From assembly GCA_946548715.1 (NCBI GenBank), contig CAMNPZ010000002.1, positions 2,908-66,907 of the forward strand: a stretch of DNA of 64,000 bases, in the 5' to 3' direction. Under the pieces are notes generated by a model. That model was not told the DNA's origin and ran no database searches. It saw only the letters and a program-made list of their open reading frames with translations. A program made the position numbers and the translations under genes. Of this stretch, positions 13,739 through 64,000 are shown one piece after another (within the stretch, counting starts at the first letter, position 1; each line of letters starts with the position of its first letter). This DNA is from an uncultured Candidatus Saccharibacteria bacterium (GTDB taxonomy: Bacteria; Patescibacteriota; Saccharimonadia; Saccharimonadales; Saccharimonadaceae).

Positions 13739-13823
13739 GGCCGAGTGGCGGAATTGGTATACGCGTTCGACTTAAAATCGAATGGGGAAACTCGTACGGG
13801 TTCAAGTCCCGTCTCGGCTACCA
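13739..13823 (+). tRNA. tRNA-Leu(TAA)
   Basis: Acceptor ggccgag/ctcggct, anticodon loop cttaaaa, long variable arm, gttcaag T-loop, encoded CCA. Confidence 0.97.
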
Positions 13824-13874: not shown

Positions 13875-14215
13875 AATAATCGCGCTGCGCACGAAGAAAA
13901 CACCAATCTGACGCCTTTTAATCTTGAATGGAACGTTGGTAGAATTGGCGATTTTAGTTAACAAATTGATATGTGCGAGAAAATACCACCTCAGCGGCTT
14001 TTAATCTCAAATGGCAAATAATCGCGCTGCGCACGAAGAAAACACCAATCTGACGCCTTTTAATCTTGAATGGAACGTTGGTAGAATTGGCGATTTTAGT
14101 TAACAAATTGATATGTGCGAGAAAATACCACCTCAGCGGCTTTTAATCTCAAATGGCAAATAATCGCGCTGCGCACGAAGAAAACACCAATCTGGCGGCT
14201 TTTAATCTTAAATGG
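13875..14215. repeat. 142-bp tandem repeat (2 full copies + partial third) containing five copies of a degenerate 35-bp unit
   Basis: aataatcgcgctgcgcacgaag starts at 13875, 14017 and 14159; 35-bp unit ending cttttaatctYRaatgg at 13897, 13980, 14039, 14122, 14181. Confidence 0.95.
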
Positions 14216-14233
14216 ACATTATATAATGGTAGT

Positions 14234-21686: not shown

Positions 21687-23822
<2,136 letters not shown>

Positions 23823-24158: not shown

Positions 24159-26315
24159 TCACTCAAAAACTGGTAGATCATCGGGGAAGGGGTCGAAATC
24201 GGAGTCGGGAAAATCGGAATCGTTAAAGAAATCGTCGGTAAAATTGGGGTCGGTGAAGCCATCGCCATCTTGGTCGCGATAGCCGGCGGAGCCGTAAGGG
24301 GAGGCACCATAGGGGTCGTAGCCAAGTTCGGTGAGAAAACGGGAAGGCATACTGTAACTGCGAGAACCATAGGAATAACGAGACTGAGCATATGTAAGGA
24401 AGAGACGCTCGCGGGCGCGAGTCATGGCGACGTAGGCGAGACGACGTTCTTCTTCGAGCTCGGCTTCATTATCGTAGGCGCGTGAGCCTGGGAAAAGTCC
24501 TTCTTCCATACCAACAATGAAGACAACGGGGAATTCGAGCCCCTTGGCGGCGTGCATGGTCATGAGTGTGACGGAATTATGGCCGGATGCTTCATCGGTG
24601 CTAGACATTAGGGTGGCGTCGGCGAGGAATTCTGGTAGAGTGTCATATTCGGAAGCGTTGCTCGCTAGGACCTCGAGGTTTTGCATGCGATCTTCGGCGG
24701 CGGGAGTGCCGTCGTCGGTGAGAGTGCGAAAATCAAAGTAATCTATAACGTGCTTGACAATATCGCCAGGGTTGTCTTCGAGGTTAGTTTTTTTAATAAA
24801 ATTGATGAGGCGGAGTAGGGCGTTACGGGCTTTGGCGGAATTGAGGATACTGGGAAGATCAGGATTAGTGAGAACATTTGGTTCGTCGATAGAATCGATG
24901 GCGTCGAGGAGTTTCTTGACTGAGACTTCGCCGATGCCAGAAAGGACGTTACTACAAACGCGGGCGAGACTGACTTTGTCGCGCTGATTGATAAGAAGAC
25001 GAAGAATAGCCATGGCGTCTTTGACTTCTTTGCGGTCGTAGAAACGGACGCCGCCGATGATTTTGTAGGGTATATGGTAGCTTAAGAAGGCTTTTTCGAA
25101 GGCGTAGGATTGAGCGTTGGTGCGATAAAGAATGGCGAAATCGGAAAAGTCGGGGTATTCTTTCTGGAGGTTGAGGATTTTCATGGCGACGAAGGTGGCT
25201 TCGGCGGTTTCGTCGCTCAAATTTTCAATATCGACTGGCTCGCCGGCTTCGGCGTCAGTGAAGAGGGTTTTGTCGGTGCGGGTTTTGTTCTCGCGGATGA
25301 TTTTCTGTGAAGCGGCGAGGATGTTCTTGGTGGAGCGGTAGTTTTGTTCGAGTTTGATAACTTTGGCGCCAGGGAAATCTTTTTCGAAATTGAGAATATT
25401 GGTAAAATCGGCACCACGCCAAGAGTAGATAGATTGCCAATCGTCGCCGACGACGCAAATGTTACGGTCTTCGTTGACAAGTAGGCGGACGATGTTGTAT
25501 TGAACGAGGTTGGTATCTTGATATTCGTCGATGAGGATGTGCTGGAATTTGGTTTGCCATTTGGCGCGGATGTCGGGATGGTTTTGGAGTAGTTCGAGCT
25601 CTTTTAGAAGGAGGTCGTCAAAATCGAGAGCGGAAGCTTTGGCTTTTTCGGATTCGTAGCGAGCGAAGATTTTGGCGATGTTTTTCTGGTTGGGATAGAG
25701 AGTAGTGGCGGCGTAATCTTCGGCGGAGTGGCCTTGGTTTTTCTCGCTACTGATGATGGATTGGATGGATTTGGGCTTTAATTGTTTATCGCTGGCGAGA
25801 CCGAGGTCTTTGATGATGCGGCGGATGAGGGAGACTTGGTCGTCGGTGTCGTAAATGACGAAATTGCGATCGAGATCCAGTGCGTCGGCTTCGATGCGCA
25901 GAATTTTGACTGCAATGCTATGAAAGGTGCCCATGTATGGCATGAAAGAGCGTGGCGGATTAGACGGTGCGGCATCTATATCTTGACTCGGGGCAATGCG
26001 GAGCGCGGCAGCGCGAGAGTTAGCGCCGTCCGCCCGTGGCGACGGGCCGGACGGACGCGGCCCCGAGTGAGATGTAGATGCCGTAACGTGTAATAGATGC
26101 CATAATCGTTCGCGCATTTCATTGGCGGCTTTGTTGGTGAAAGTGACGGCAAGGATGCGATGTGGGTCGATGCCGTGGGTGATGAGATTAGCGATACGAT
26201 GGGTGAGAGTTTTAGTCTTGCCAGAACCAGCACCGGCCAGAATAAGTAGTGGTCCGGATAATGTTTTGACCGCCTGACGTTGAGCCGGATTTAATTCCTC
26301 CAGTATTTTGTCCAT
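24159..26315 (-). CDS. pcrA: UvrD/PcrA SF1 helicase carrying an in-frame palindromic insertion
   Basis: AGAGSGKT, DEYQDTN, VGDDWQSIY, LEQNYRS, TMHAAKGLEF, EERRLAYVAMTRA. Confidence 0.96.
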   Translation of the reverse strand: MDKILEELNPAQRQAVKTLSGPLLILAGAGSGKTKTLTHRIANLITHGIDPHRILAVTFTNKAANEMRERLWHLLHVTASTSHSGPRPSGPSPRADGANSRAAALRIAPSQDIDAAPSNPPRSFMPYMGTFHSIAVKILRIEADALDLDRNFVIYDTDDQVSLIRRIIKDLGLASDKQLKPKSIQSIISSEKNQGHSAEDYAATTLYPNQKNIAKIFARYESEKAKASALDFDDLLLKELELLQNHPDIRAKWQTKFQHILIDEYQDTNLVQYNIVRLLVNEDRNICVVGDDWQSIYSWRGADFTNILNFEKDFPGAKVIKLEQNYRSTKNILAASQKIIRENKTRTDKTLFTDAEAGEPVDIENLSDETAEATFVAMKILNLQKEYPDFSDFAILYRTNAQSYAFEKAFLSYHIPYKIIGGVRFYDRKEVKDAMAILRLLINQRDKVSLARVCSNVLSGIGEVSVKKLLDAIDSIDEPNVLTNPDLPSILNSAKARNALLRLINFIKKTNLEDNPGDIVKHVIDYFDFRTLTDDGTPAAEDRMQNLEVLASNASEYDTLPEFLADATLMSSTDEASGHNSVTLMTMHAAKGLEFPVVFIVGMEEGLFPGSRAYDNEAELEEERRLAYVAMTRARERLFLTYAQSRYSYGSRSYSMPSRFLTELGYDPYGASPYGSAGYRDQDGDGFTDPNFTDDFFNDSDFPDSDFDPFPDDLPVFE
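25970..26083 (-). mobile_element. In-frame palindromic element, copy in pcrA (sense to the gene)
   Basis: cccgtggcgacggg at 26033-26046 on +; arms cggcatctatatct / agatgtagatgccg. Confidence 0.85.
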
Positions 26316-27884: not shown

Positions 27885-28048
27885 AATAATGAATATATCA
27901 CGGGATGAATAAAATGTAAAGAGTTGAAGAATAAAGGGATGGATGGCTTGTGGGACGAAAAAAGTTTTTCTGTTGCCAAAAATGATTAAGCTTGTGGTAT
28001 AATGGTAGAAAGCTTAATAATATTGCAATATTGATTAAAAACAAGGAA

Positions 28049-29998
28049 ATGGAGCCAATGGGTAGAAACTATACAAAGACAAATCTCATCATGCGTAGTA
28101 GCGTTAGTCTACTAATGCTGACTATGATTAGTGGGCTAGTATTAATTAGTAATAAGGCCTCCGCAGACTCATCGGCGGTATCTACGGCATCCATTACGGT
28201 ACCAGTGGCTTGTACGATGCGAGGAACGGGAGTGGACTCACATACGGCTACGCTCGCACCTAATACCTACTCTGGTGCTTCCGGCTCTGGATACGAAAAC
28301 GGCATCGGTAAAACTACTCTCACTGCTATATGTAATGATGATAATGGTTTCTCCATCTATGCTATAGGATACACTGGTAATTCATATGATTCAGAAAACC
28401 ATACTAAGCTAGTTGGTTCTACTACGGGTGGTACTATAGCTACTAAAGCTTATGCAAGTGGAGACACTACATCCAACTGGTCCATGAAACTAACCAAGGT
28501 CACTAACACATCTGAATCCTATAATCCACAGAACCTAACCATTCAAAGTGATACAGAAGGCTCATTCGATACATGGCACAGTATCCCATCTGCATATGCT
28601 AAAGTAGCAGAATACCACGCTAATACTGGTTCATCTACTACCGATACTACACTCGGCGTTAAACTAGAAACCACCTATGCAGCCTACATCTCATCCTCTC
28701 AGCCAGCCGATACTTATGTAGGACAAGTTAAATACACCATGGTGCATCCATATACAGAAGCACCATTACAACCACAAACTGCAACATCAGGATGTATTAA
28801 CTACTTCCCAAATGGCAGTAACGTAGATGGTACTATGGGCTGTCAACCAATCTCAAGTACTGATACATCCGCTACGCTTCTAGCTTCTAACTTCAGTAGA
28901 ACTGGCTATGGCTTTGCAGGTTGGTCTAACAAGTTTGATTATGCTACTAATCCAAATCAAGAAGGCATTAAGTTCTACGGCCCACAAGAAGATATAACCT
29001 TCACTGCAGGTGAATACACTGGCAGTAACAATGGTCTAGCTCTCTATGCTGTCTGGGTAAAAAGTGTAGGCAATCTTCAAGATACTGCCAAAGTTGCTAC
29101 ACTTTGTGGAACGGGAGCGGGTAGCTTAATCAAGGCCAATGAGGCTACCAATATCCTAAGCCAAAGTATTACTGCCCTTTCTGATTCTCGCGACAATAAT
29201 ACCTATGCCATCGCCAAACTAGCTGATGGTAAATGCTGGATGATTGAAAACTTGCGTCTAGACAACTCTGCCTCACTCACTCTCGCAAATACTAATAATC
29301 CGCTAAACGATGGCACTAATGTCACTCTCAAACATAGCTATTCAGATACCGAAACATATAACACTCTTTCTGCTTCACAAGATCCCACTACGACTGCATG
29401 GTGCCAATCCAATAGTGCTTCCTGCTATGATCAATCTATGCTATTTACTGGTAATACTACTAACCGTGCTTCCTATGAAACTGGAGCTACGATGATAAAT
29501 AATGACAATATCTATTCCTACGGCAACTACTACAACTGGTACTCCGCCACAGCAGGTAGAGGCGCATATAGCTTTAGCACTTACAATAATAGTGTCGCAG
29601 GCGACCTATGTCCTGCTGGTTGGCACCTACCAAAAGGTGGTGATAAATCAAATGAAGCTAACAACGAATTCTGGTCATTAGTAGTTACTGGTATTAATAA
29701 TGGCACAAATCCAGCTAATTATGAAAGTAGTACTACACCGTATTACACGGGTACTCCAGAAGGTACGGATGCTTCTAATAAAATGAGAGCTTATCCTAAC
29801 AATTTTGTCTATTCCGGCAACGTCTACAGTGGCTCGGTGTACAGTCGCGGCTCGAACGGCGGCTTCTGGTCGTCTACGGCGTACTCGTCCCGCAACGTCT
29901 ACTACCTGAGCCTGGGATCGTCCTACGCCGACACAGGCACATTCAACGCCAACAAGTATAACGGGAGGACAGTGCGCTGCGTCGCCTCCGGCGTTTAG
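28049..29998 (+). CDS. Secreted protein with C-terminal Fibrobacter succinogenes major paralogous (CLec-like) domain, paralogue 1; start revised to ATG 28049 or 28058
   Basis: Signal peptide; DSRDNNTYAIAKLADGKCWMIENLRL, YGNYYNWYSATAG, LCPAGWHLP, FWSST...VRCV. Confidence 0.85.
   Translation: MEPMGRNYTKTNLIMRSSVSLLMLTMISGLVLISNKASADSSAVSTASITVPVACTMRGTGVDSHTATLAPNTYSGASGSGYENGIGKTTLTAICNDDNGFSIYAIGYTGNSYDSENHTKLVGSTTGGTIATKAYASGDTTSNWSMKLTKVTNTSESYNPQNLTIQSDTEGSFDTWHSIPSAYAKVAEYHANTGSSTTDTTLGVKLETTYAAYISSSQPADTYVGQVKYTMVHPYTEAPLQPQTATSGCINYFPNGSNVDGTMGCQPISSTDTSATLLASNFSRTGYGFAGWSNKFDYATNPNQEGIKFYGPQEDITFTAGEYTGSNNGLALYAVWVKSVGNLQDTAKVATLCGTGAGSLIKANEATNILSQSITALSDSRDNNTYAIAKLADGKCWMIENLRLDNSASLTLANTNNPLNDGTNVTLKHSYSDTETYNTLSASQDPTTTAWCQSNSASCYDQSMLFTGNTTNRASYETGATMINNDNIYSYGNYYNWYSATAGRGAYSFSTYNNSVAGDLCPAGWHLPKGGDKSNEANNEFWSLVVTGINNGTNPANYESSTTPYYTGTPEGTDASNKMRAYPNNFVYSGNVYSGSVYSRGSNGGFWSSTAYSSRNVYYLSLGSSYADTGTFNANKYNGRTVRCVASGV
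29813..29998 (+). other. Putative DGR variable region (VR)
   Basis: Abrupt switch from T-ending to C/G-ending codons in the last ~60 codons of a CLec-type domain; followed by hairpins. Confidence 0.6.
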
Positions 29999-35618: not shown

Positions 35619-35878
35619 CGGTGAACTCGGCGGAGCTTGTTTCGCGCTTCTCGTCACCAATAAAAACAAGACGCAAGCGTCTTCTTTTTATTGGTGATCT
35701 CGGCGGGAGCTTGTTTCGCGCTTTGCGCGAAACAATTCGCAGGGCGTCGTCTCGAAATATCCAAAACTAGTTTTGGATATTTGTTCGGCTCCTATTGCGA
35801 GCGAACCATACGGGTTCGCCCCCTGCCAAAATTGTCAGAATAAAAAAATAAAACCCAAAGGGTTTATTTTTTTTATTC
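35619..35878. repeat. Hairpin-rich region with two extra copies of the tRNA-Glu 3' end and a module shared with the intragenic palindromic elements
   Basis: tggtgatctcggcgggag (35692-35709) vs tRNA tggcgatctcggcgggag (35879-35896); degenerate copy 35619-35635; module 35737-35800. Confidence 0.85.
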
Positions 35879-35953
35879 TGGCGATCTCGGCGGGAGTCGA
35901 ACCCGCGTTGTCGGGATGAAAACCCGATGTACTAACCGTTATACTACGAGACC
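35879..35953 (-). tRNA. tRNA-Glu(TTC)
   Basis: ggtctcgtagtataacggttagtacatcgggttttcatcccgacaacgcgggttcgactcccgccgagatcgcca. Confidence 0.97.
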
Positions 35954-37984: not shown

Positions 37985-40471
37985 ATGGAGAGATTTTTGG
38001 AGTATTTTGCACCGGAACGGTATATGCTTGATCTGGTGATTGATAAGTACAAAAAAATAATAGGCGGCGTGGTGACTGTGAAGGGTGAAGTATTGCAAGA
38101 GACGGTGAAATTTCATGCAGTGAGATTGAAAATTATTGATGTGCTAGTGAACGGTGTAAAGACGAAGTTTAAGGCTGATGGGGAGACGCTTGTTATTGAT
38201 GGACTGGAACTGGGCGAAGTGGAAATTACGATGCGATATAGCGGGACTTTAAATGAAAACATGGAGGGGGCGTATATCTCTACCTATGAATACAATGGGA
38301 AGACAGAAACGATTGTGGCTACACAATTTGAATCGCATTATGCGCGTGAAGCTTTTCCGTGTATTGATGAACCAGCTGCGAAAGCCGTATTCGAACTTTC
38401 TATCGCAGTGCCGGAAGGTTCAAAAGATATTGTGTTGTCCAATATGCCAGAAGTCAAAGCTCGGTCTGGCGCAATGCGGAGCGCGGCAGCGCGAGAGTTA
38501 GCGCGCTCGCCCCGTGGCGACGGGCGCGAGCGACGCGGCGCCAGGACGAGCTTTGATTCTGGCTATGCGATAATATCTTTTGAACCGACGCCACGAATGT
38601 CGACGTATTTGTTGGCTTTTGTAATTGGTAAGTTTCACGGGAAGACTATTACGAATGAACATGGGGTGGAGATTACAACTTATGCAGCGTTAAATCAGGA
38701 CATAGATTCGGTGGATTTCGCAAATGAGATTGCGGCGCGGTCGCTCGAGTTTTATGACGATAATTTCAAAGAGCCGTATCCACTGAAACGGTGTGTACAG
38801 GTGGCGTTGCCGGATTTTGAAGCTGGGGCGATGGAAAACTGGGGGCTGGTGACATATCGGGAGTCGATGTTACTTGCTGGTAAGAATGCGACACTTGGTA
38901 CGAGAAAATCGGTTGCATTAACAGTGGCACATGAATTGTCGCATCAGTGGTTTGGAGACCTAGTGACGATGAAGTGGTGGGACGATTTGTGGCTGAATGA
39001 GTCGTTTGCGAGCGTGATGGAGTATTATGCAGTGGATGCGATTCATCCGGAATATAAGATATTTGAAGGGTTCTTCACGGGGGATGCGTATTTGGCTTTG
39101 ACGCGCGATGCGTATTCGGATGTGCAATCAGTGCATCAGGAAGTACATAACCCGGAAGAGATTGCGACGCTATTTGACTCGGCGATTGTTTATTCGAAGG
39201 GTGCAAGATTAATGCTGATGCTGATTCGCCTGATGGGTTGGGAACAGTTCTGCAAGGGGGTGGCGGACTATTTTGATAAGTTCAAGTATCGAAATACGGT
39301 GGGGGATGATTTGTGGAAGTGTTTGAAGCCTTATGCGGAGTTTGACCCCGGAAAACTAATGCATGCATTTATCGATAAGCCAGGGTACCCAGTAATTGAA
39401 GGTGACGATGAATTTAAAAAGTATACCCAAAAAAGGTTTTTGCTTGACAGTAATAAAATGCCACAATCGGATTGGCCTTTGCCGGAGATAACGGAAGATA
39501 TGTCGGGGCATTATGTGATTAACTTGTCGGATGAGCAATTTGAAGAAAGACTGGTGCAGTTTGAAAAACTAGGATTGGAAGAGAAGCTAAGATTATTAAT
39601 TGATCGAAACTTACTAGCAAAGACAGATTTAGCGTCTTCGGTCTCATTGTTGCCATTAATTCAGAAGTTCAAAAAGGAAAATTCGGCAGCAGTATGGGGG
39701 GTGGTGCTCTCGATTGTCTCAGGGTTGAAGATATTTTTCGAGCCAGATTCTGAGGAAGAAAGGTTATATAAAAAGCTAGTTGGAGAGTTGGTAAAGCCGA
39801 AGTTAGCGGAGGTTGGGTTAACAACAAGGAAAGATGACGATGAAAATACAATTCGTCTGCGGGCGATTCTACTTGGGTTAGATTATTATGCAGAAACGCA
39901 AGAGAACATTGAAACGCTTGCAGGCTATTATAAGGACGATTTGTCCACATTGGAACCAGAAACTCGTGAAGCGATTATAGATGCAAAATTATATGTCGAA
40001 CCATCGATGATTGACGAATATTTGCGTAAATATCAGACTGAGGCTGACCCGGAGGTGAAATTTGAATTGTTATTTGCTGGGACAGTTTCGAAGGATAAGA
40101 AAGTGCTCGATAAGATGCTGGAGTTACTTGAAAAACCCGAGATAGTGAAACCGCAAGACCAATTGTATTTGTATGTGTATTTGTATCGAAATCCACGGTC
40201 GAGAAAAAAGGCATTTGATTGGTTGAGGGAACATTGGGATTATGTGAGAGAGATGACGGGCGATAAAACTTTGGAAGGGTACCCACGTTATATGGCCGGC
40301 TCCGTGAGAACAGAGGAAGAGTATGAGGAGTGGAAAGAATTTTTCTGGCCGATGCGGGATGATGCGGCGGTATCGAGGGCGATTGCGATAGGTGAGAAAG
40401 AAATAAAAGCGAGGATTGAATTAATTCGACGCGATAAGGGTGCGGTAGTGGAAGAACTGAATAAAAAATAA
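37985..40471 (+). CDS. pepN: M1 aminopeptidase N carrying an in-frame palindromic insertion
   Basis: ATQFE...AREAFPCIDEP, GAMENWG, HELSHQW(18x)E, VYSKGA. Confidence 0.95.
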   Translation: MERFLEYFAPERYMLDLVIDKYKKIIGGVVTVKGEVLQETVKFHAVRLKIIDVLVNGVKTKFKADGETLVIDGLELGEVEITMRYSGTLNENMEGAYISTYEYNGKTETIVATQFESHYAREAFPCIDEPAAKAVFELSIAVPEGSKDIVLSNMPEVKARSGAMRSAAARELARSPRGDGRERRGARTSFDSGYAIISFEPTPRMSTYLLAFVIGKFHGKTITNEHGVEITTYAALNQDIDSVDFANEIAARSLEFYDDNFKEPYPLKRCVQVALPDFEAGAMENWGLVTYRESMLLAGKNATLGTRKSVALTVAHELSHQWFGDLVTMKWWDDLWLNESFASVMEYYAVDAIHPEYKIFEGFFTGDAYLALTRDAYSDVQSVHQEVHNPEEIATLFDSAIVYSKGARLMLMLIRLMGWEQFCKGVADYFDKFKYRNTVGDDLWKCLKPYAEFDPGKLMHAFIDKPGYPVIEGDDEFKKYTQKRFLLDSNKMPQSDWPLPEITEDMSGHYVINLSDEQFEERLVQFEKLGLEEKLRLLIDRNLLAKTDLASSVSLLPLIQKFKKENSAAVWGVVLSIVSGLKIFFEPDSEEERLYKKLVGELVKPKLAEVGLTTRKDDDENTIRLRAILLGLDYYAETQENIETLAGYYKDDLSTLEPETREAIIDAKLYVEPSMIDEYLRKYQTEADPEVKFELLFAGTVSKDKKVLDKMLELLEKPEIVKPQDQLYLYVYLYRNPRSRKKAFDWLREHWDYVREMTGDKTLEGYPRYMAGSVRTEEEYEEWKEFFWPMRDDAAVSRAIAIGEKEIKARIELIRRDKGAVVEELNKK
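38446..38563 (-). mobile_element. In-frame palindromic element, copy in pepN (antisense to the gene)
   Basis: cccgtggcgacggg at 38511-38524 on the coding strand; 34 nt identical to the pcrA copy; arms gccagaagtcaaagctcg / cgagctttgattctggc. Confidence 0.85.
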
Positions 40472-55880: not shown

Positions 55881-57374
55881 ATGAGTATCATGCATGAAAC
55901 TAAACTAATTACACTATTATTAACCATAACTCTACTTAGTGGCATAACTCTTATCTCTTCTAAAGTTTCCGCCGATACCGAAGTCATAGACCAAGTCCGC
56001 TTAACTGTTCCTATCGCCTGTACCATGACTGGCGAGAATACTTCCCATACTGCTACACTAGATCCTGGTATTTATTCTGGAGAAACTGGTAGTGAATACG
56101 AAAACGGCATCGGTAAAACCACCCTCACGGCTATATGTAATGATGATAATGGCTTCTCCATCTATGCTATAGGATACACTAATAATCAATATGAAGGAGA
56201 AAACCATACTAAACTCATCGGACAATCAACTAGTAGCACCATAGCTACTAAAGCCTATGCCTCAGGAGACACTACATCTAACTGGTCTATGAAACTAACC
56301 AAAGTCACAGACTCTACAATATCCTATAATCCACAGAACTTAACTATCCAAAGTGATACAGAAGGCACCTTCAGCAATTGGCACAGTATACCAGATGCTT
56401 ATACTAAAGTAGCCGAATATCACGCCAATACAGGTTCCTCTACTACCGACACCACTCTAGGCGTCAAACTAGAAACCACCTATGCTGCCTACATCTCATC
56501 CTCTCAACCTGCTGATACTTATGTAGGACAAGTTAAATACACTATGGTACACCCATATGATGCAGACGAGCCGGTTATTCCAAGATCATTAGATACTGCT
56601 ACCACTATGCAGGAAGTTACATTCTGTTCTCAAGAGTTGCCAGAAGGTCAAGTATATACTTTAACAGACGCTCGTGATAGTAATGTCTACCATGTTGCAA
56701 GATTAAGAGATGGCAATTGTTGGATGCTGGACAATCTTGCTCTTGACCCCACAGACTCATCCACCGCAGCTAACATGAATGAATCCAATACTAATGCATC
56801 GGCCGCAGCAATCGATAATCTTCTTCATGGCGGCAGTGCTATTACCGGCTGGAGTAGTGTAGCGGTTTCGGATATAGATGGGGGAAGTTTTATTACCGAT
56901 GGCTATATTGCCCCTCGTATTAATAATGCTAGCAAAGATACTCTCGTGACATCGTATGGCTTAGCTTCGACTAGCAATAAAGCCAAGGTGGGCATTTATT
57001 ATAATCTTTGTGCTGCTAGTGCTAGCACTCGCTGTTCCACTGATTCAATAGACGTTACGCAAGATATTTGTCCTGCCAACTGGAGAATACCAACTGGAGA
57101 TAAAACTACTGGTGAGTACGCTGTTTTGGCGGAAAAATATAGTAGCAAAGATGCTACTAGCTCAGACAGCCTTCAGTACAATTTGTCTACACCATTATCT
57201 GGCTATTATACATCCGCAGCATATGGACAGGGTAATTATGGTGCTTGGTGGTCTTCTACGCATTATGCTAGTTTTGACTCACAGTATGGCTTATATGTGA
57301 TGCCAGCGTATATAGAGGCGGACAGGGGAACTAAATACGAAGGAAGAACTTTGAGGTGTCTAGTAGCCAATTAA
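55881..57374 (+). CDS. Secreted Fibrobacter-domain paralogue 2; start revised from 55755
   Basis: Signal peptide; N-terminal module near-identical to paralogues 1 and 3; DARDSNVYHVARLRDGNCWMLDNL, ICPANWRIP, WWSST, LRCL. Confidence 0.85.
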   Translation: MSIMHETKLITLLLTITLLSGITLISSKVSADTEVIDQVRLTVPIACTMTGENTSHTATLDPGIYSGETGSEYENGIGKTTLTAICNDDNGFSIYAIGYTNNQYEGENHTKLIGQSTSSTIATKAYASGDTTSNWSMKLTKVTDSTISYNPQNLTIQSDTEGTFSNWHSIPDAYTKVAEYHANTGSSTTDTTLGVKLETTYAAYISSSQPADTYVGQVKYTMVHPYDADEPVIPRSLDTATTMQEVTFCSQELPEGQVYTLTDARDSNVYHVARLRDGNCWMLDNLALDPTDSSTAANMNESNTNASAAAIDNLLHGGSAITGWSSVAVSDIDGGSFITDGYIAPRINNASKDTLVTSYGLASTSNKAKVGIYYNLCAASASTRCSTDSIDVTQDICPANWRIPTGDKTTGEYAVLAEKYSSKDATSSDSLQYNLSTPLSGYYTSAAYGQGNYGAWWSSTHYASFDSQYGLYVMPAYIEADRGTKYEGRTLRCLVAN

Positions 57375-57446
57375 TACACAATTAGCGTTTGGATTATTCT
57401 TTCGATGGAGGTATGTTATAATGAAAGTAAGGAGATGCTAGATAGA

Positions 57447-58799
57447 ATGAAATTATCGGAAGAATTGATTTATCGGGGGTTTGTGGCGGAGACCACGATT
57501 GAGAAGCCGGAGGAGCTAGATAATCGGGAGTCGAAGAAGTTTTATTGGGGGGCGGATCCGTCGGCGGATTCGTTGACGATTGGGAACCTCGCGGCGCTAA
57601 TGATGTGTGCGTGTTTTGTGCGGCACGGGTATGAGCCGGTGCTACTGGTCGGTGGGGCGACGGGGCAGATTGGGGACCCGAAGGAAAATGGCGAGCGCGA
57701 ACTGAAGTCGCTTGAAGAAGTGGAACATAATAAGCAATGTATCAAACAGCAAATTGAACGAGTAATATTCGGCGGGACGAGCGGAACTACTGATTCTCGA
57801 CTCGCGCCTGCGCGCCCGTCGTCACGGGGCTCCGGCGCTCATTCCGCTCCCGTTGTCGCGGACGGTCTCGAATCAGCAGTTTCCGCTCGTCCTGAGGTAC
57901 TTCTCGTTGATAATTATGACTGGTTCAAGGATATGAAGTATCTCGATTTCTTGCGGGAAGTGGGGAAGGCGTTTTCGATGACGCAGTTGCTTGACCGGCA
58001 ATTTGTGCAGAATCGGATTGGTGAAGGGGGTGCGGGGATTTCGTATGCAGAGTTCTCGTATACTCTGATTCAGGGTTATGATTTCTTGCATTTGTATCGT
58101 AAATATGGAGTGTCGTTGCAGCTGTGTGGGGCGGACCAGTATGGTAACTGTACGAGTGGGATTCATTTGATTAAGCGACTTGAAGATGCGCGGGCTGATG
58201 TGTGGTCGACGCCGCTGGTGATTGACCCGGTGACAGGGCGGAAGTTTGGGAAGTCTGAAGGAAATGCCGTGTGGCTAGCTAGCTCGGATAATGGGTCGGG
58301 GAATTATACGAGTGTGTTTGATTTCTATCAGTTTTGGTTGAACCAGCCGGATGAGGCGGTGGAATACTTGATTAAGATTTATACGTTGCTGGAGCCGGAG
58401 GAAATTGACGAGATTCTAGCGAAGCACCGGGAGGCGCCGGAGAAGCGTTTGGCGCAGCGGGCGCTGGCGCGTGGTGTGACGGAAGTGGTACACGGGGCGG
58501 AAGCTGCAGAGGCGATTGAGAATTTAACGGCGATGTTGTTTGACAAAGCGACGAATTTTGCGGAGTTTAGTGAAGATGAGATACTGGAGTTTGCGAAGTA
58601 TCTGCCGGTGGAGAAGAAGGGGGTGCAGCTCATTGACGCGCTGATTAGTCATGGGCTGGCGGAGTCGAAGAAAAAGGCGCGGGAGTTCCTGGTGGCGGGG
58701 GCGATTACGGTGAATGGCGAGAAAGTGCGCGAAGACGTGGCAGTGAAACAGACGGCGATTGTGAAGAGGGGGAAGAATAAGTTCTTGGTAATCAAATGA
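57447..58799 (+). CDS. tyrS: Tyrosyl-tRNA synthetase carrying an in-frame palindromic insertion; start 57435 or 57447
   Basis: GADPSADSLTIGN, GGATGQIGDP, NYDW, FSYTLIQGYDF, GADQYGN, KFGKS, S4 domain. Confidence 0.96.
   Translation: MKLSEELIYRGFVAETTIEKPEELDNRESKKFYWGADPSADSLTIGNLAALMMCACFVRHGYEPVLLVGGATGQIGDPKENGERELKSLEEVEHNKQCIKQQIERVIFGGTSGTTDSRLAPARPSSRGSGAHSAPVVADGLESAVSARPEVLLVDNYDWFKDMKYLDFLREVGKAFSMTQLLDRQFVQNRIGEGGAGISYAEFSYTLIQGYDFLHLYRKYGVSLQLCGADQYGNCTSGIHLIKRLEDARADVWSTPLVIDPVTGRKFGKSEGNAVWLASSDNGSGNYTSVFDFYQFWLNQPDEAVEYLIKIYTLLEPEEIDEILAKHREAPEKRLAQRALARGVTEVVHGAEAAEAIENLTAMLFDKATNFAEFSEDEILEFAKYLPVEKKGVQLIDALISHGLAESKKKAREFLVAGAITVNGEKVREDVAVKQTAIVKRGKNKFLVIK
57775..57892 (+). 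mobile_element. In-frame palindromic element, divergent copy in tyrS (sense)
   Basis: cccgtcgtcacggg at 57815-57828; arms ggacgagcggaactactgatt / aatcagcagtttccgctcgtcc. Confidence 0.8.
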
Positions 58800-60208
58800 A
58801 ATACTTGGCGGTACTTGGTAGACAACCGGAAATTTCAATTGCTGAGCTTGAGGCTCTTTATGGCTTGAGGCAGCATCAAACATCTTTCTCGGGCTGCGTC
58901 GCCGCCGCCCGTCGACCTTTCAGATCGTCCGCCGGGCGTCGCCTCGACACGGAAAGCAAGCTTTCCGTCTGCTCGGCTCCTACTGCGGTCTGCCACGGGG
59001 GCGGCGCGCTCATCCTCGCCTTGCCAGGCTCCGGAGGCCCTTCGAAAGACGTTTCGATGCTGCCGTCTATAAATCGTCTCGGCGGGACTCTTAAGTTGGC
59101 GATTGAACTTGCATGTTCACCGCTAGACTACTTAAGGGGATTGCCGGAGGGTAAGATTACGCTTGGGGTGAGTGATTATTCGGCGAAAGCATCGCGGAAG
59201 ACGGCGGTGATGGAGGCGCTGAAGCTGAAAAAAATATTGGTGCGGCATGGACGAAGTGTGCGAGTGGTGGAGAATAGGGAGGCAACGCTGTCCACGGCGA
59301 CGTCGCTACATAATGGACTATCAGGAAAGAATCCACGGAAAGTGGAACTGATTAAGGTGGAGAATGACTGGTACCGCGTGATAGGGGTGCAGGATATTGA
59401 TGCTTACGCGAAACGTGACCAGGCGAGGCCGGCGCGAGATGCGCGAGTAGGGATGTTGCCGCCGAAGTTGGCGCAGATATTGATCAATCTATGCGGGCCG
59501 CTTGAGCTTGGTTCGGTGGTTTTGGATCCGTTTTGCGGAACAGGAGTGGTACTGCAAGAGGCTATGCTGATGGGGTATCGAGCATACGGAACGGATTTGA
59601 GTGAGAGGATGGTGGAATATAGTGAAAAGAATTTAACATGGCTTATGAAATCCAAAAATATTCATTCTCGGGGCGCGTCCGGCCGGCCCGTCGACCTTGA
59701 TGGTCGCCCGCTGGGCGTCGCCTCGACACAAAACGCAAGCGTTTTGTCTACTCGGCTCCTACAGCGGTCTGCCACGGGCGGCCGGCGCTACCCCTCGCCT
59801 TGCCAGGCTCCGGACCCCCTCGAATCGAATATTTTCTGGATTTCACAAGGCGATGCAACTTCTTTTCAATGGGAGCAACCAATCGATGCGGTGGCATGTG
59901 AGGGCTATCTCGGAAAACCGTTTAGTCGGGTGCCTTCGGAAATGGAGTTGAAAGAGCAGAAGCAGGAGTGTGCGGCGATAGTGCTAGGGTTTTTGAAGAA
60001 TTTGGCGGGGCAGGTGAAGGCGGGAGCACCGGTGGTGATTGCGGGGCCGGCGTGGCTACGGCCAGATGGGGAGTATGAGCGGATGGAGATACTTGACGAG
60101 ATTTCTGATATGGGGTATAATGTTAATAATAAAACGCGCGAGGGGCTGCTTTATCATCGGGATAATCAGGTTGTCGCGAGAGATATAATAATATTAAGGA
60201 AGAATTAA
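58796..60208 (+). CDS. TRM11/UPF0020-like SAM-dependent RNA methyltransferase with two in-frame palindromic insertions
   Basis: GMLPPKLAQILIN, VLDPFCGTG, ACEGYLG. Confidence 0.8.
   Translation: MKYLAVLGRQPEISIAELEALYGLRQHQTSFSGCVAAARRPFRSSAGRRLDTESKLSVCSAPTAVCHGGGALILALPGSGGPSKDVSMLPSINRLGGTLKLAIELACSPLDYLRGLPEGKITLGVSDYSAKASRKTAVMEALKLKKILVRHGRSVRVVENREATLSTATSLHNGLSGKNPRKVELIKVENDWYRVIGVQDIDAYAKRDQARPARDARVGMLPPKLAQILINLCGPLELGSVVLDPFCGTGVVLQEAMLMGYRAYGTDLSERMVEYSEKNLTWLMKSKNIHSRGASGRPVDLDGRPLGVASTQNASVLSTRLLQRSATGGRRYPSPCQAPDPLESNIFWISQGDATSFQWEQPIDAVACEGYLGKPFSRVPSEMELKEQKQECAAIVLGFLKNLAGQVKAGAPVVIAGPAWLRPDGEYERMEILDEISDMGYNVNNKTREGLLYHRDNQVVARDIIILRKN
58869..59064 (+). mobile_element. 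In-frame palindromic element, long form, copy 1 in the methyltransferase
   Basis: cccgtc|78-nt module 58914-58991|gccacggg; arms ggcagcatcaaacatcttt / aaagacgtttcgatgctgcc. Confidence 0.85.
59646..59845 (+). mobile_element. In-frame palindromic element, long form, copy 2 in the methyltransferase
   Basis: Core equals the ligA core plus a 78-nt module 59693-59770; arms tgaaatccaaaaatattc / gaatattttctggatttca. Confidence 0.88.
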
Positions 60209-61894: not shown

Positions 61895-61977
61895 TACACA
61901 TTTTCCGACCGAAAAAGGTGAGAATTTACACATTTTCCGACCGAAAAAGGTGAGAATTTACACATTTTCCGACCGAA
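61895..61977. repeat. 32-bp tandem repeat, 2.6 copies
   Basis: tacacattttccgaccgaaaaaggtgagaatt at 61895, 61927 and partial at 61959. Confidence 0.95.
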
Positions 61978-62091
61978 TACGGGGTGGTATGGGCTGATAA
62001 TTCTTTGATGGCATTTTTGGTTAAAATGATTAAGCTTGTGGTATAATGGTAAAAAGCTTAATAGTATTGCGATATTTATTAAAAAAAGGAA

Positions 62092-64000
62092 ATGGATCCA
62101 ATGAGTAGAAACTATACAAAGGCAAATCTCATAATGCGTAGTGGTGTTGGTTTGCTAGCGCTGACTATGATTAGTGGGCTAGTATTAATTAGCAATAAAG
62201 CCTCCGCGGAATCATCAGCGGTATCTACGGCATCTATCACGGTGCCAGTGGCTTGTACGATGCGGGGAACGGGAGTGGATTCGCACACGGCTACGCTCGC
62301 GCCCAACACCTACTCCGGCGCTTCCGGTTCCGAATATGAAAATGGCATCGGTAAAACCACCCTCATTGCTATATGCAATGATGACAATGGCTTCTCCATC
62401 TATGCTATAGGATATACTGGTAATTCATATGACTCAGAAAACCATACTAAACTAGTTGGCTCTACTACTGGCGGCACTATAGCTACTAAAGCCTATGCAT
62501 CGGAAGATACTACTTCCAATTGGTCCATGAAACTAACTAAAGTCACTGACGTAGCAGAATCCTATAATCCACAGAACTTAACTATCCAAAGTGATACAGA
62601 AGGAACCTTTTCTTCATGGCATAGTGTGCCTGCTTCATATACTAAAGTAGCAGAATATCATGCTAATACTGGTTCATCTACCACCGACACTACTCTCGGC
62701 GTTAAACTAGAAACTACCTATGCAGCATACATAGCATCCAATCAACCAGCTGATACTTACATAGGACAAGTAAAATATACTATGGTACATCCATACACAG
62801 AAGAGCCTTTACAACCACAACCATCTACTGCAGGTTGTATTAACTACCATGCTAATGCTAGCGATGCTGTAGGTACTATGGGATGCCAGTCAGCTACAGA
62901 CGGTAATTCAATAGACCTTCTGGCTTCCAACTTCAGTAGAACTGGCTACGGTTTCGCTGGTTGGAGTGATAAGTTTGATTATGCTACTAACGCAGAAGCT
63001 GAATTTTACGGTCCAATGGAAACCATCACCGTTCCTACCGGCACTACTGCTAATGGCCTCTCTCTTTACGCCGTATGGGTGAAATCAGAAGGCAGTATCC
63101 AAGATACCAGCAAAGTTGCATCGGTTTGCAATCGCCTAATCACTGCTCCGACTGACGGCACTGCTAACCTCACTTCTGTCTCCGCATTAACTGACCAACG
63201 TGACAACAACACTTACGCTATTGCGAAACTCGCAGATGGTAATTGTTGGATGATTGAGAACTTGCGCCTAGAAAGTACTAATAGCGATAATAGTACTGGT
63301 GCTCTCGCTCAAGGCTACGGTACTTCCGCTACTTATGGTAACTTCGGAGGGCTTGCTACTGCAGAATCCACTAATTTTTCAAATACCACTACGGCAAACA
63401 GTCTCTACTATAGCGGAACTCAATCCGGTGATGCTACGATAGACATTGGCACTACAAACTATCCAGGTTACCGTATGCCACGCTATAATAACTGGAACAA
63501 CCAATCTGCTTCCGCGAATCGTCCACAAAACCCAACATCTAATTCAGTCACTAATAGCACTACAAATGCTGGTATGTATAGCTACGGTAACTACTACACT
63601 TGGCATGCCGCTATAGCGGATACTACCTACAATGGCACTAATAACTCTAGTTCCGATACCACCTCTCTCTGTCCAACTGGTTGGAGATTGCCACGCGGTG
63701 GTCAAAACACTGTAACTGCTGGGCAGAATGGTGATTTCTATGTACTTACCACCACTCTTACTGGAATGGCTCCAAATAACGCTAATAGTGGATATGCATA
63801 TTATTCTGGAACAGTTGATGGAACTGATGTAGGCAAGTTAGCATCCGATTCATTAAGGAATTATCCAAATAACTTCCTCTACTCCGGCGGCTTCAGTACC
63901 TCGTCGGCGAGCAATAGAGGTAGTAGCGGCTACTATTGGTCGTCTACTGCGTATAGTTACAGCACTAGCTACAGCCTGAGCCTGTATAGTTCCAGCGTGT
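62092..64000 (+). CDS. Secreted Fibrobacter-domain paralogue 3, truncated by the window end (absent from the ORF track because it has no stop)
   Basis: Promoter and N-terminus homologous to paralogue 1; DQRDNNTYAIAKLADGNCWMIENLRL, YGNYYTW, LCPTGWRLP, YYWSST. Confidence 0.88.
   Translation, partial: MDPMSRNYTKANLIMRSGVGLLALTMISGLVLISNKASAESSAVSTASITVPVACTMRGTGVDSHTATLAPNTYSGASGSEYENGIGKTTLIAICNDDNGFSIYAIGYTGNSYDSENHTKLVGSTTGGTIATKAYASEDTTSNWSMKLTKVTDVAESYNPQNLTIQSDTEGTFSSWHSVPASYTKVAEYHANTGSSTTDTTLGVKLETTYAAYIASNQPADTYIGQVKYTMVHPYTEEPLQPQPSTAGCINYHANASDAVGTMGCQSATDGNSIDLLASNFSRTGYGFAGWSDKFDYATNAEAEFYGPMETITVPTGTTANGLSLYAVWVKSEGSIQDTSKVASVCNRLITAPTDGTANLTSVSALTDQRDNNTYAIAKLADGNCWMIENLRLESTNSDNSTGALAQGYGTSATYGNFGGLATAESTNFSNTTTANSLYYSGTQSGDATIDIGTTNYPGYRMPRYNNWNNQSASANRPQNPTSNSVTNSTTNAGMYSYGNYYTWHAAIADTTYNGTNNSSSDTTSLCPTGWRLPRGGQNTVTAGQNGDFYVLTTTLTGMAPNNANSGYAYYSGTVDGTDVGKLASDSLRNYPNNFLYSGGFSTSSASNRGSSGYYWSSTAYSYSTSYSLSLYSSSV

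Follow-up and report, generated by a model that had tools for sequence, protein, structure and literature searches.

A probable family of modular, GC-rich hairpin repeats residing in frame in protein-coding genes of Candidatus Nanosyncoccus

INTRODUCTION

Rickettsia palindromic elements (RPEs) are repeats of about 100 to 150 bp that lie in frame inside housekeeping genes (Ogata et al. 2000, as described in PMC10969869). As in-frame palindromic repeats of housekeeping genes, they appear to be the closest known parallel to the elements reported here, two of which occupy a methyltransferase gene in a 64,000-nucleotide stretch of DNA (the window; contig CAMNPZ010000002.1, assembly GCA_946548715.1) from an uncultured Candidatus Saccharibacteria bacterium. 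The host genome is Ca. Nanosyncoccus (Saccharibacteria G3), from the gut. RPEs are short palindromic repeats placed in frame in many unrelated housekeeping genes, where they add extra peptides at tolerated positions; in each case the bacterium has a reduced genome and depends on a host, and neither family has a known transposase. In-frame insertion in many unrelated genes was also what we found for the Saccharibacteria family (113 of 126 copies). The resemblance is one of mode of working and not of membership, RPEs being set apart by description and not by sequence comparison. The phylum is different and there is no sequence relationship; RPE-1 to RPE-10 are confined to Rickettsia, whereas the present matches are all from Saccharibacteria/Nanosyncoccus. 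In contrast to RPEs, the Saccharibacteria family is GC-rich in an AT-richer genome and occurs in both orientations and several frames. Its covarying locus-specific outer stems, nested modules and replication-strand bias go unmentioned for RPEs in PMC10969869.

REP, REPIN and BIME sequences share with the Saccharibacteria family hairpin repeats with conserved unpaired bases, compensatory stem evolution (found here as well), mosaic modules and long persistence by vertical descent; in both, the form recognised is presumed to be a hairpin of single-stranded DNA. However, REPs are extragenic, measure 20 to 40 nt and are associated with a RAYT gene and a GTAG motif, whereas the present family is intragenic (about 90%) and has a core of about 80 nt with a three-way fold, and no RAYT gene was found among 35 scanned open reading frames (ORFs) of the window. 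An earlier note on this DNA, made from the sequence alone, had likened the assembly of the elements to that of REPINs and BIMEs. The mosaic hairpin modules agree with that comparison, which holds as an analogy and not as membership.

Miniature elements derived from IS200/IS605 (PATEs) are matched only in part. They resemble the family in lacking a target-site duplication (here, at the module junction), in having strand-specific hairpins and in a replication orientation bias. The present elements, however, do not end in subterminal hairpins like those of IS200/IS605 elements, neither TnpA nor a conserved tetranucleotide target was identified, and, in contrast to IS200/IS605, the lagging-strand template carries the weaker-folding strand. 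Classical miniature inverted-repeat transposable elements (Correia, ERIC, BOX and RUP) are likewise small, non-autonomous and structured, and sometimes form in-frame fusions; here no direct target-site duplication and no parent insertion sequence were seen, and the flanks are inverted repeats, partly an inverted duplication of host sequence. The GC clusters of yeast mitochondria are also GC-rich, palindromic and mobile within a genome richer in AT, and coding or rRNA genes may contain them, but they are organellar, much shorter and of another sequence family.

We consider it likely that the elements in the window belong to a Ca. Nanosyncoccus family of DNA repeats that are GC-rich, non-autonomous and hairpin-forming, with modular exchange. 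The observations concern its anatomy, host range, in-frame residence, both orientations, constant junction, mosaicism, stem covariation and the presence of both alleles in DNA.

RESULTS

Two long-form elements in a methyltransferase gene

The host gene (58796-60208, plus strand) encodes a UPF0020/N6_N4-type methyltransferase of 470 amino acids, and its ORF is open through both elements. Element 1, at site 1 (58869-59064, plus strand), was delimited from the sequence and from core and module searches. It consists of a 5' outer arm (58869-58886), a core 5' half (58887-58913), a 78-nt apical module of variant M1 (58914-58991), a core 3' half (58992-59045) and a 3' outer arm (59046-59064). Element 2, at site 2 (59647-59844, plus strand), was delimited in the same way and has the same order of parts. 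Its outer arms are at 59647-59665 (5') and 59824-59844 (3'), the two halves of its core at 59666-59692 (5') and 59771-59823 (3'), and between these halves lies module variant M2 (59693-59770). All parts lie on the plus strand.

The earlier note had claimed that exactly 78 nt separate CCCGTC from GCCACGGG in both copies, and this is so: CCCGTC ends at 58913 and GCCACGGG starts at 58992 in the first copy, and the corresponding positions are 59692 and 59771 in the second. The other details that it gave of the modules hold as well. M1 and M2 start with GACC and end with GGTCT, and both contain GGGCGTCGCCTCGAC followed by a hairpin and then CT(G/A)CTCGGCTCCTAC. The internal hairpin has 8 bp and a CAAG loop, with the arms ACGGAAAG-CAAG-CTTTCCGT or ACAAAACG-CAAG-CGTTTTGT; three pairs of the stem differ between M1 and M2, all fully compensated. 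Over the whole module, the two variants differ at 14 of 78 positions, and the ambiguity of the junction in the methyltransferase copies amounts to one G. Without its module, copy 2 equals the core in ligA (22214-22293) except for the two compensatory bases already claimed (CTCGGCTTGCCAGCC versus CTCGCCTTGCCAGGC), which represent the exchange of a single G-C pair for C-G in the stem below the TGCC loop. The hairpins fold 5 to 8 standard deviations better than shuffled sequence.

We found that the homologs of the methyltransferase, which range from 346 to 492 amino acids, all come from Candidatus Saccharibacteria of ruminant and other guts. Length variation among the aligned homologs is confined to two places, site 1 (after ELEA) and site 2 (between NLxWL and FxISxGDA). 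In the homolog alignment, these sites are empty, short, long or filled by other inserts; both are insertion hot spots that are occupied already in many relatives. One example of a predicted insert peptide is VDLDGRPLGVASTQNASVLSTR. In an AlphaFold model, the predicted inserts (about residues 23-95 and 287-344) are low-confidence segments with a pLDDT of 22 to 35, compared with 60 to 89 for the remaining fold; the model is of low quality (mean pLDDT 55), too weak for placing the inserts on the fold.

The gene had been thought to have been hit twice independently. In agreement, the site-1 and site-2 cores differ at 20 of 80 positions, lie in different reading frames and hold different module variants, and M1 and M2 are each nearer to modules in other genes or genomes than to one another. 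A "hit" may here stand for copy-choice or gene conversion between copies, and not for transposition.

A family of structured cores in many host genes

The core is a GC-rich three-stem hairpin of about 80 nt. TCTCGGGG and CCCC(T)TCGA, its conserved ends, repeat each other imperfectly in inverted orientation. Its main stem is bulged (3+7+5 bp) and capped by CCCGT-CGCC-ACGGG, and the side hairpin has 4 bp and a TGCC loop. Around each core lies a locus-specific outer stem of 20 to 30 bp in AT-richer sequence.

A covariance model of the core found exactly six copies in the window (E values of 3e-20 to 2e-7), and these six matches are beyond chance. Two are the long forms in the methyltransferase gene. 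Three are short forms: in ligA (22196-22313, plus strand, sense, 90.7 bits), in a UvrD-type helicase gene (25967-26083, minus strand, sense to the gene at 24159-26315, minus strand; 93 bits) and in the M1 aminopeptidase gene pepN (38417-38586, minus strand, antisense to the gene at 37985-40471, plus strand; 82.9 bits). The sixth is a divergent core in tyrS (57775-57892, plus strand, 38.9 bits), which belongs to a subfamily in which the apex is CGTC and the side arm is CCCGTTGTCGCG. The same model found 117 copies in 738 kb of loci.

For the family scan, the 3' half of the core was used as a pattern with one genome per species. At least 114 stretches were obtained, and all those listed come from metagenome-assembled genomes (MAGs) of Saccharibacteria/Ca. 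Nanosyncoccus. The core pattern had no match in viral contigs, and scanning JGI metagenomes with the module pattern gave chance matches only, in high-GC DNA; the metagenome and viral scans hold no evidence for free modules or phage carriage. We found no published description of this repeat family in the searchable literature.

A census of 126 copies, orthologous ones included, comprised 108 copies of the short type, 17 with an apical insert and 1 truncated copy. Among the short-type loops, 103 are CCCGTCGCCACGGG, 3 are point variants and 2 are the GTACGAAAGC loop; the constancy of the apical and side loops across copies is imposed by the search pattern and the short-form filter. About 90% of the copies are intragenic (113 of 126), lying within long ORFs that read through them at 64 or more host-site clusters. 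Relative to these ORFs, 62 copies are sense and 51 antisense, and the other 13 lie outside long ORFs. Since both orientations occur relative to the gene, the element is a DNA-level repeat and not an intron or mRNA element. The depth of the core in DNA metagenomes was 20 to 40 times that of the gene body, compared with about 1 to 3 times the single-copy depth for the module, which suggests tens of cores and one to a few modules per genome.

The truncated copy (L066, 616-682) lies just 3' of a stop codon, between the flanks AAAAAATCACCCT and AGGGTGATTTTTT, and is probably a terminator-like hairpin between genes.

The stems covary strongly. Pairing was found in 97.4% of the stem cells of 102 distinct short copies, compared with 80.9% after shuffling, and 323 cells are altered on both sides, compared with 97.5; the observed values were reached in 0 of 500 shuffles. 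One-sided changes number only 4 against the 323 two-sided ones, with almost no G-U intermediates. The covariation score of the stems is 0.398 versus 0.111 for shuffles, and slid controls collapse. Covariation extends to single sites: in the 19-bp outer stem of site 2, five fully compensated pair changes occurred among six orthologs although both arms are protein-coding, and most of the mismatches that are left read A·C on the forward strand and G·T on the other.

About 17 of the 102 cores have the inner-stem arms GCTCGCT / GCTCGCG (alignment columns 21-22 / 42-43). The 3' arm of this subfamily carries an inverted 6-mer that produces two central mismatches, and the subfamily has spread nonetheless.

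The long and short forms are both present in DNA

Metatranscriptome contigs contained exact 78-nt skips. The same exact skip was found in DNA metagenome contigs and in the assembly of L001, and the skips therefore represent short alleles or copies and not splicing; RNA excision of the module was rejected. Two metatranscriptome contigs continue from host sequence into the long form. Introns and intervening sequences are characterized by a fixed orientation and by removal from RNA, whereas here copies are sense and antisense and RNA contigs keep the long form.

An RNA-level feature acting in the host transcript, either intron-like or as a cis-regulatory mRNA structure, would agree with the strong covariation of the stems, the conserved loops and the skips in metatranscriptome contigs. 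We consider it very improbable: sense and antisense copies are nearly equal in number, the skips recur in DNA metagenomes and the L001 assembly, and the long form is retained in RNA contigs. Moreover, all in-ORF copies are in frame, which would be needless if they were excised from RNA, and the near lack of G-U intermediates and of any Rfam match also speaks against it. With Rfam 15, nothing besides tRNAs reached the gathering score in the window, and the region 58840-59860 gave no match even at E≤1. Identity of the element with a known ribozyme or RNA family was ruled out on this ground.

Apical modules are exchanged at a constant junction

The earlier note had held that the short and long forms differ by a precise, frame-neutral module. 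In about 1 Mb, seven type-A modules were found, and every one is 78 nt long and lies at CCCGTC|...|(GCC/TT)ACGGG. At site 1, the window and L001 differ by exactly 78 nt (26 amino acids). L001 is the closest ortholog of the methyltransferase (88% identical in the alignment) and has the same core and outer stem at this site without the module. Variable junctions, which would imply ordinary deletion, were not found; the junction is constant, and length varies through several module types.

The 17 apical inserts are all at the same loop position and are of several types. Type A has 78 nt; type B has 33 to 36 nt, ends with GTCCCAAGGGGCGGTCT and has a 48-nt relative; type C has 75 nt and type D about 72 nt. 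Types A, B and C have in common a GACnnnnGTC mini-hairpin and a CYGC/GCRG stem. Insert lengths within ORFs (33, 36, 48, 72, 75 and 78 nt) are all multiples of 3, and the sole 34-nt insert lies outside a long ORF. One of the seven type-A modules (L011) sits in the tyrS-type core subfamily. A six-frame search of a protein database with the module peptide, too insensitive for a census, gave 4 significant matches (TrmD, QueA and one unknown), placing the module in further host genes and in the second core subfamily.

The modular assembly that had been proposed was borne out by the incongruent phylogenies of modules and cores and by the inserts of 33 to 75 nt at the same loop position. M1 differs at 1 of 78 positions from the module of L056, in a QueA-like gene of another genome, while the cores differ at 15 of 80. 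From the site-2 module of the methyltransferase gene in L126 it differs at 2 of 78, and the cores around M1 differ from those in L056 and L126 at 15 to 16 of 80. M2 differs from the module in L127 at 6 of 78 positions, every one in the first mini-hairpin. Conversely, at the orthologous site 2 of L126 and L127, the modules differ at 15 of 78 positions and the cores at 3 of 80. Since module and core distances are incongruent and L001 is short at site 1, the module has been exchanged between copies and is not a deletion remnant. Site 1 is short in L001, P0003, P0010 and others, and the site-1 module is therefore a gain in the window lineage.

The short forms could instead be ordinary deletions from one ancestral long element that was inherited vertically and lost its module locus by locus. 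Imprecise internal deletions do exist, since the apex is lost at site 1 of L129 and the copy in L066 is truncated, and L002 has a core-less palindromic scar. However, independent deletions could not regenerate about 108 copies with an identical CGCC or near-identical loop, several different modules occupy one junction, module and core histories are incongruent, and site 1 is long in the window lineage only. This explanation is thus largely refuted, and we give it hardly any weight.

The only non-nested relative of the module that we found (35733-35803; nhmmer E 1.3e-3) is the long arm of an intergenic element at 35702-35827 (plus strand). This element has a cloverleaf-like, four-way fold (z -6.3) and lies beside tRNA-Glu (35879-35953, minus strand). 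The last 14 to 26 nt of the tRNA recur three times in the manner of att sites (35883-35896, 35697-35710 and 35623-35640). A homologue lies beside tRNA-Glu in another strain, and a homologue with a different first hairpin is present on a metatranscriptome contig.

Many alleles occur at orthologous sites

Site 2 of the methyltransferase gene is long in L126, L127 and L128, short in L003, L039, L060 and L098, and inverted-short in L001, L101 and L095. Both orientations were found in 12 of the 18 site clusters with at least 3 members. The core-adjacent arms of site 2 are homologous between forward and inverted alleles, which suggests that cores were flipped in place. In L002 (3355-3434), site 2 has no core, and a 13-bp palindrome (AAAGATGGAAATAG-TC-TATTTCATCTTT) lies at the insertion point and resembles a scar from the loss of the core. 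At site 1 of L129, the apex is missing.

A second, unrelated hairpin family (GACGGGTCCTGCCG ... CCCCC ... GGGGG ... CGGCGTCACCCGTC) fills the same host loops in other genomes. It was found at methyltransferase site 1 (L101, L095 and L130), in the tyrS loop (L129) and in L057, and the sites are therefore hot spots shared by several families.

The tyrS core is absent from L001. Comparing tyrS of the window (57405-58799) with that of L001 (8769-10004), we found that the proteins are almost identical apart from the element, which takes the place of a 24-nt stretch of the L001 allele; this is a replacement and not a simple interruption.

Strand asymmetry and orientation relative to replication

Of 102 copies, 99 fold better as the reverse-complement strand than as the forward strand, with a mean difference of 9.5 kcal/mol; the same holds with DNA parameters. 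Core and outer stems both show the asymmetry (73 versus 27 for the outer stems), in sense and antisense copies alike. Mutation bias was ruled out as the cause of the wobble asymmetry, which is the same in sense and antisense copies and opposite to the pressure of the GC skew.

The GC skew of the whole window is about +0.3, unusually strong and uniform, and is still positive over the minus-strand genes at 24-28 kb; it therefore marks the replication strand and not transcription.

The forward strand of the element is on the G-rich strand in 82 copies and on the other strand in 23 (50 versus 12 when collapsed to site and orientation), so that orientation agrees with the replication strand about 80% of the time. 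Because of this bias, antisense copies are enriched in genes opposed to their neighbours. The better-folding strand is on the leading-strand template, and the weaker-folding strand is on the lagging-strand template.

Inverted duplication of the host flank was found at pepN, where L052 provides the empty allele for comparison with the window, and at an MnmA-like gene, from the comparison of L057 with L065. One arm of the outer stem there is conserved host coding sequence, and the other arm is its inverted duplicate (at pepN, the outer stem is such a duplicate in part).

The module might be a tiny transposable unit moved by a dedicated HUH/Y1-type single-strand transposase that targets the CCCGTC|GCC loop, with no copy-choice or gene conversion involved. 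The constant junction without target duplication beyond one G, the same module in two core subfamilies with unrelated flanking stems, the strand asymmetry and replication-strand bias as in IS200/IS605 elements, and the free module relative at 35733-35803 are consistent with this. However, no HUH/Y1 gene was found among the scanned ORFs of the window, the modules are few (about 1 to 3 times single-copy depth, compared with 20 to 40 times for the core), and template switching through microhomology at the conserved motifs could give the same junction. We regard such a unit as unlikely, though among the alternatives it carries the most weight.

Other features of the window

A perfect tandem repeat with a 142-nt unit (13875-14216; 2 full units and a 58-nt partial third) lies directly 3' of a tRNA (13739-13820). 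Three paralogous genes (27979-29262, 56043-56746 and 62023-63272) are 79 to 88% identical, and two of them have a 70-nt upstream leader in common. In front of the paralog at 62023-63272, a 32-nt unit is present three times (61895-61990).

DISCUSSION

In the explanation that we favor, the long form would be a core with a second hairpin module that evolves separately and sits precisely at C|G of CGCC in the apical loop, and the 78-nt module would be one of several apical modules. Modules would move or be copied between cores independently, by site-specific insertion or by copy-choice at the CCCGTC/GCCACGGG motifs, and the methyltransferase gene may have acquired two cores first and two different module variants later. 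Surviving copies would keep the frame and contain no stop codon, hence persist in genes and be transcribed and translated as extra loop peptides. Spread and maintenance would proceed through a single-stranded DNA hairpin during replication. The signals from strand, orientation, flipping, compensation, duplication and scar point to such a hairpin, which would account for the asymmetry between strands, the orientation bias, the inversely duplicated flanks and the in-situ compensation. Taken alone, this replication-coupled mechanism is tentative, and we would put it somewhat short of an even chance.

Several results weigh against the favored explanation. Orthologous copies are among those counted, and not every copy represents an independent event. 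That the inserts are translated was deduced from intact ORFs and from RNA contigs that possibly include DNA. No transposase, HUH or RAYT gene was found among 35 scanned of the 42 window ORFs of at least 110 amino acids. A polarity rule, by which the host-derived arm would always be at the core 3' end, was unsupported (22 versus 17 copies, with 54 unclear). Finally, the compensatory change in situ could reflect selection at the level of the host and not selfish persistence.

In a different proposal, the host keeps the hairpins for a function in its DNA, as BIME-like protein-binding or topological sites or as replication signals, and scarce intergenic space forces them into ORFs. In its favor are the compensatory evolution at orthologous sites, even in coding arms, the orientation tied to the replication strand and not to the gene, the conserved loops, and the wide and regular spread of the copies. 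On the other hand, presence, absence and orientation vary freely among close relatives at one site, and unrelated hairpin families use the same sites as hot spots. Palindromes that correct themselves by template switching could look like the product of selection, and no binding protein is known. A host function of this kind seems to us quite unlikely.

The family might also spread and grow without any transposase, through hairpin template switching coupled to replication. New hairpin units would then be added by copying at the tip of a hairpin already in place: a palindrome would receive the core, and the core loop would afterwards receive the module. The base of the stem would grow outward by fold-back copying of host coding sequence, cores would flip in place, and arms would correct each other. 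We think that there is a small chance of this, a little greater than that of a host function. If it were true, essential genes would contain onion-like nested palindromes, and DNA pairing would constrain amino acids on both sides of the insert.

If the favored explanation of a DNA repeat family with exchangeable modules is true, selfish palindromic DNA inside protein-coding genes would be represented by a second case, independent of the first and much richer, in a Candidate Phyla Radiation bacterium with a tiny, gene-dense genome. Hundreds of public MAGs hold many natural alleles per site (empty, scar, short, long and inverted), and since these occur at the same sites, insertion, growth, flipping and loss could be worked out by comparison alone. 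The elements break metagenome assemblies, their repeat depth being 20 to 40 times that of the gene body. For the annotation of Saccharibacteria, length variation, spurious "novel domains" and apparent frameshifts can stem from these elements, and the host proteins would contain segments whose sequence covaries because the DNA or its single strand must pair.

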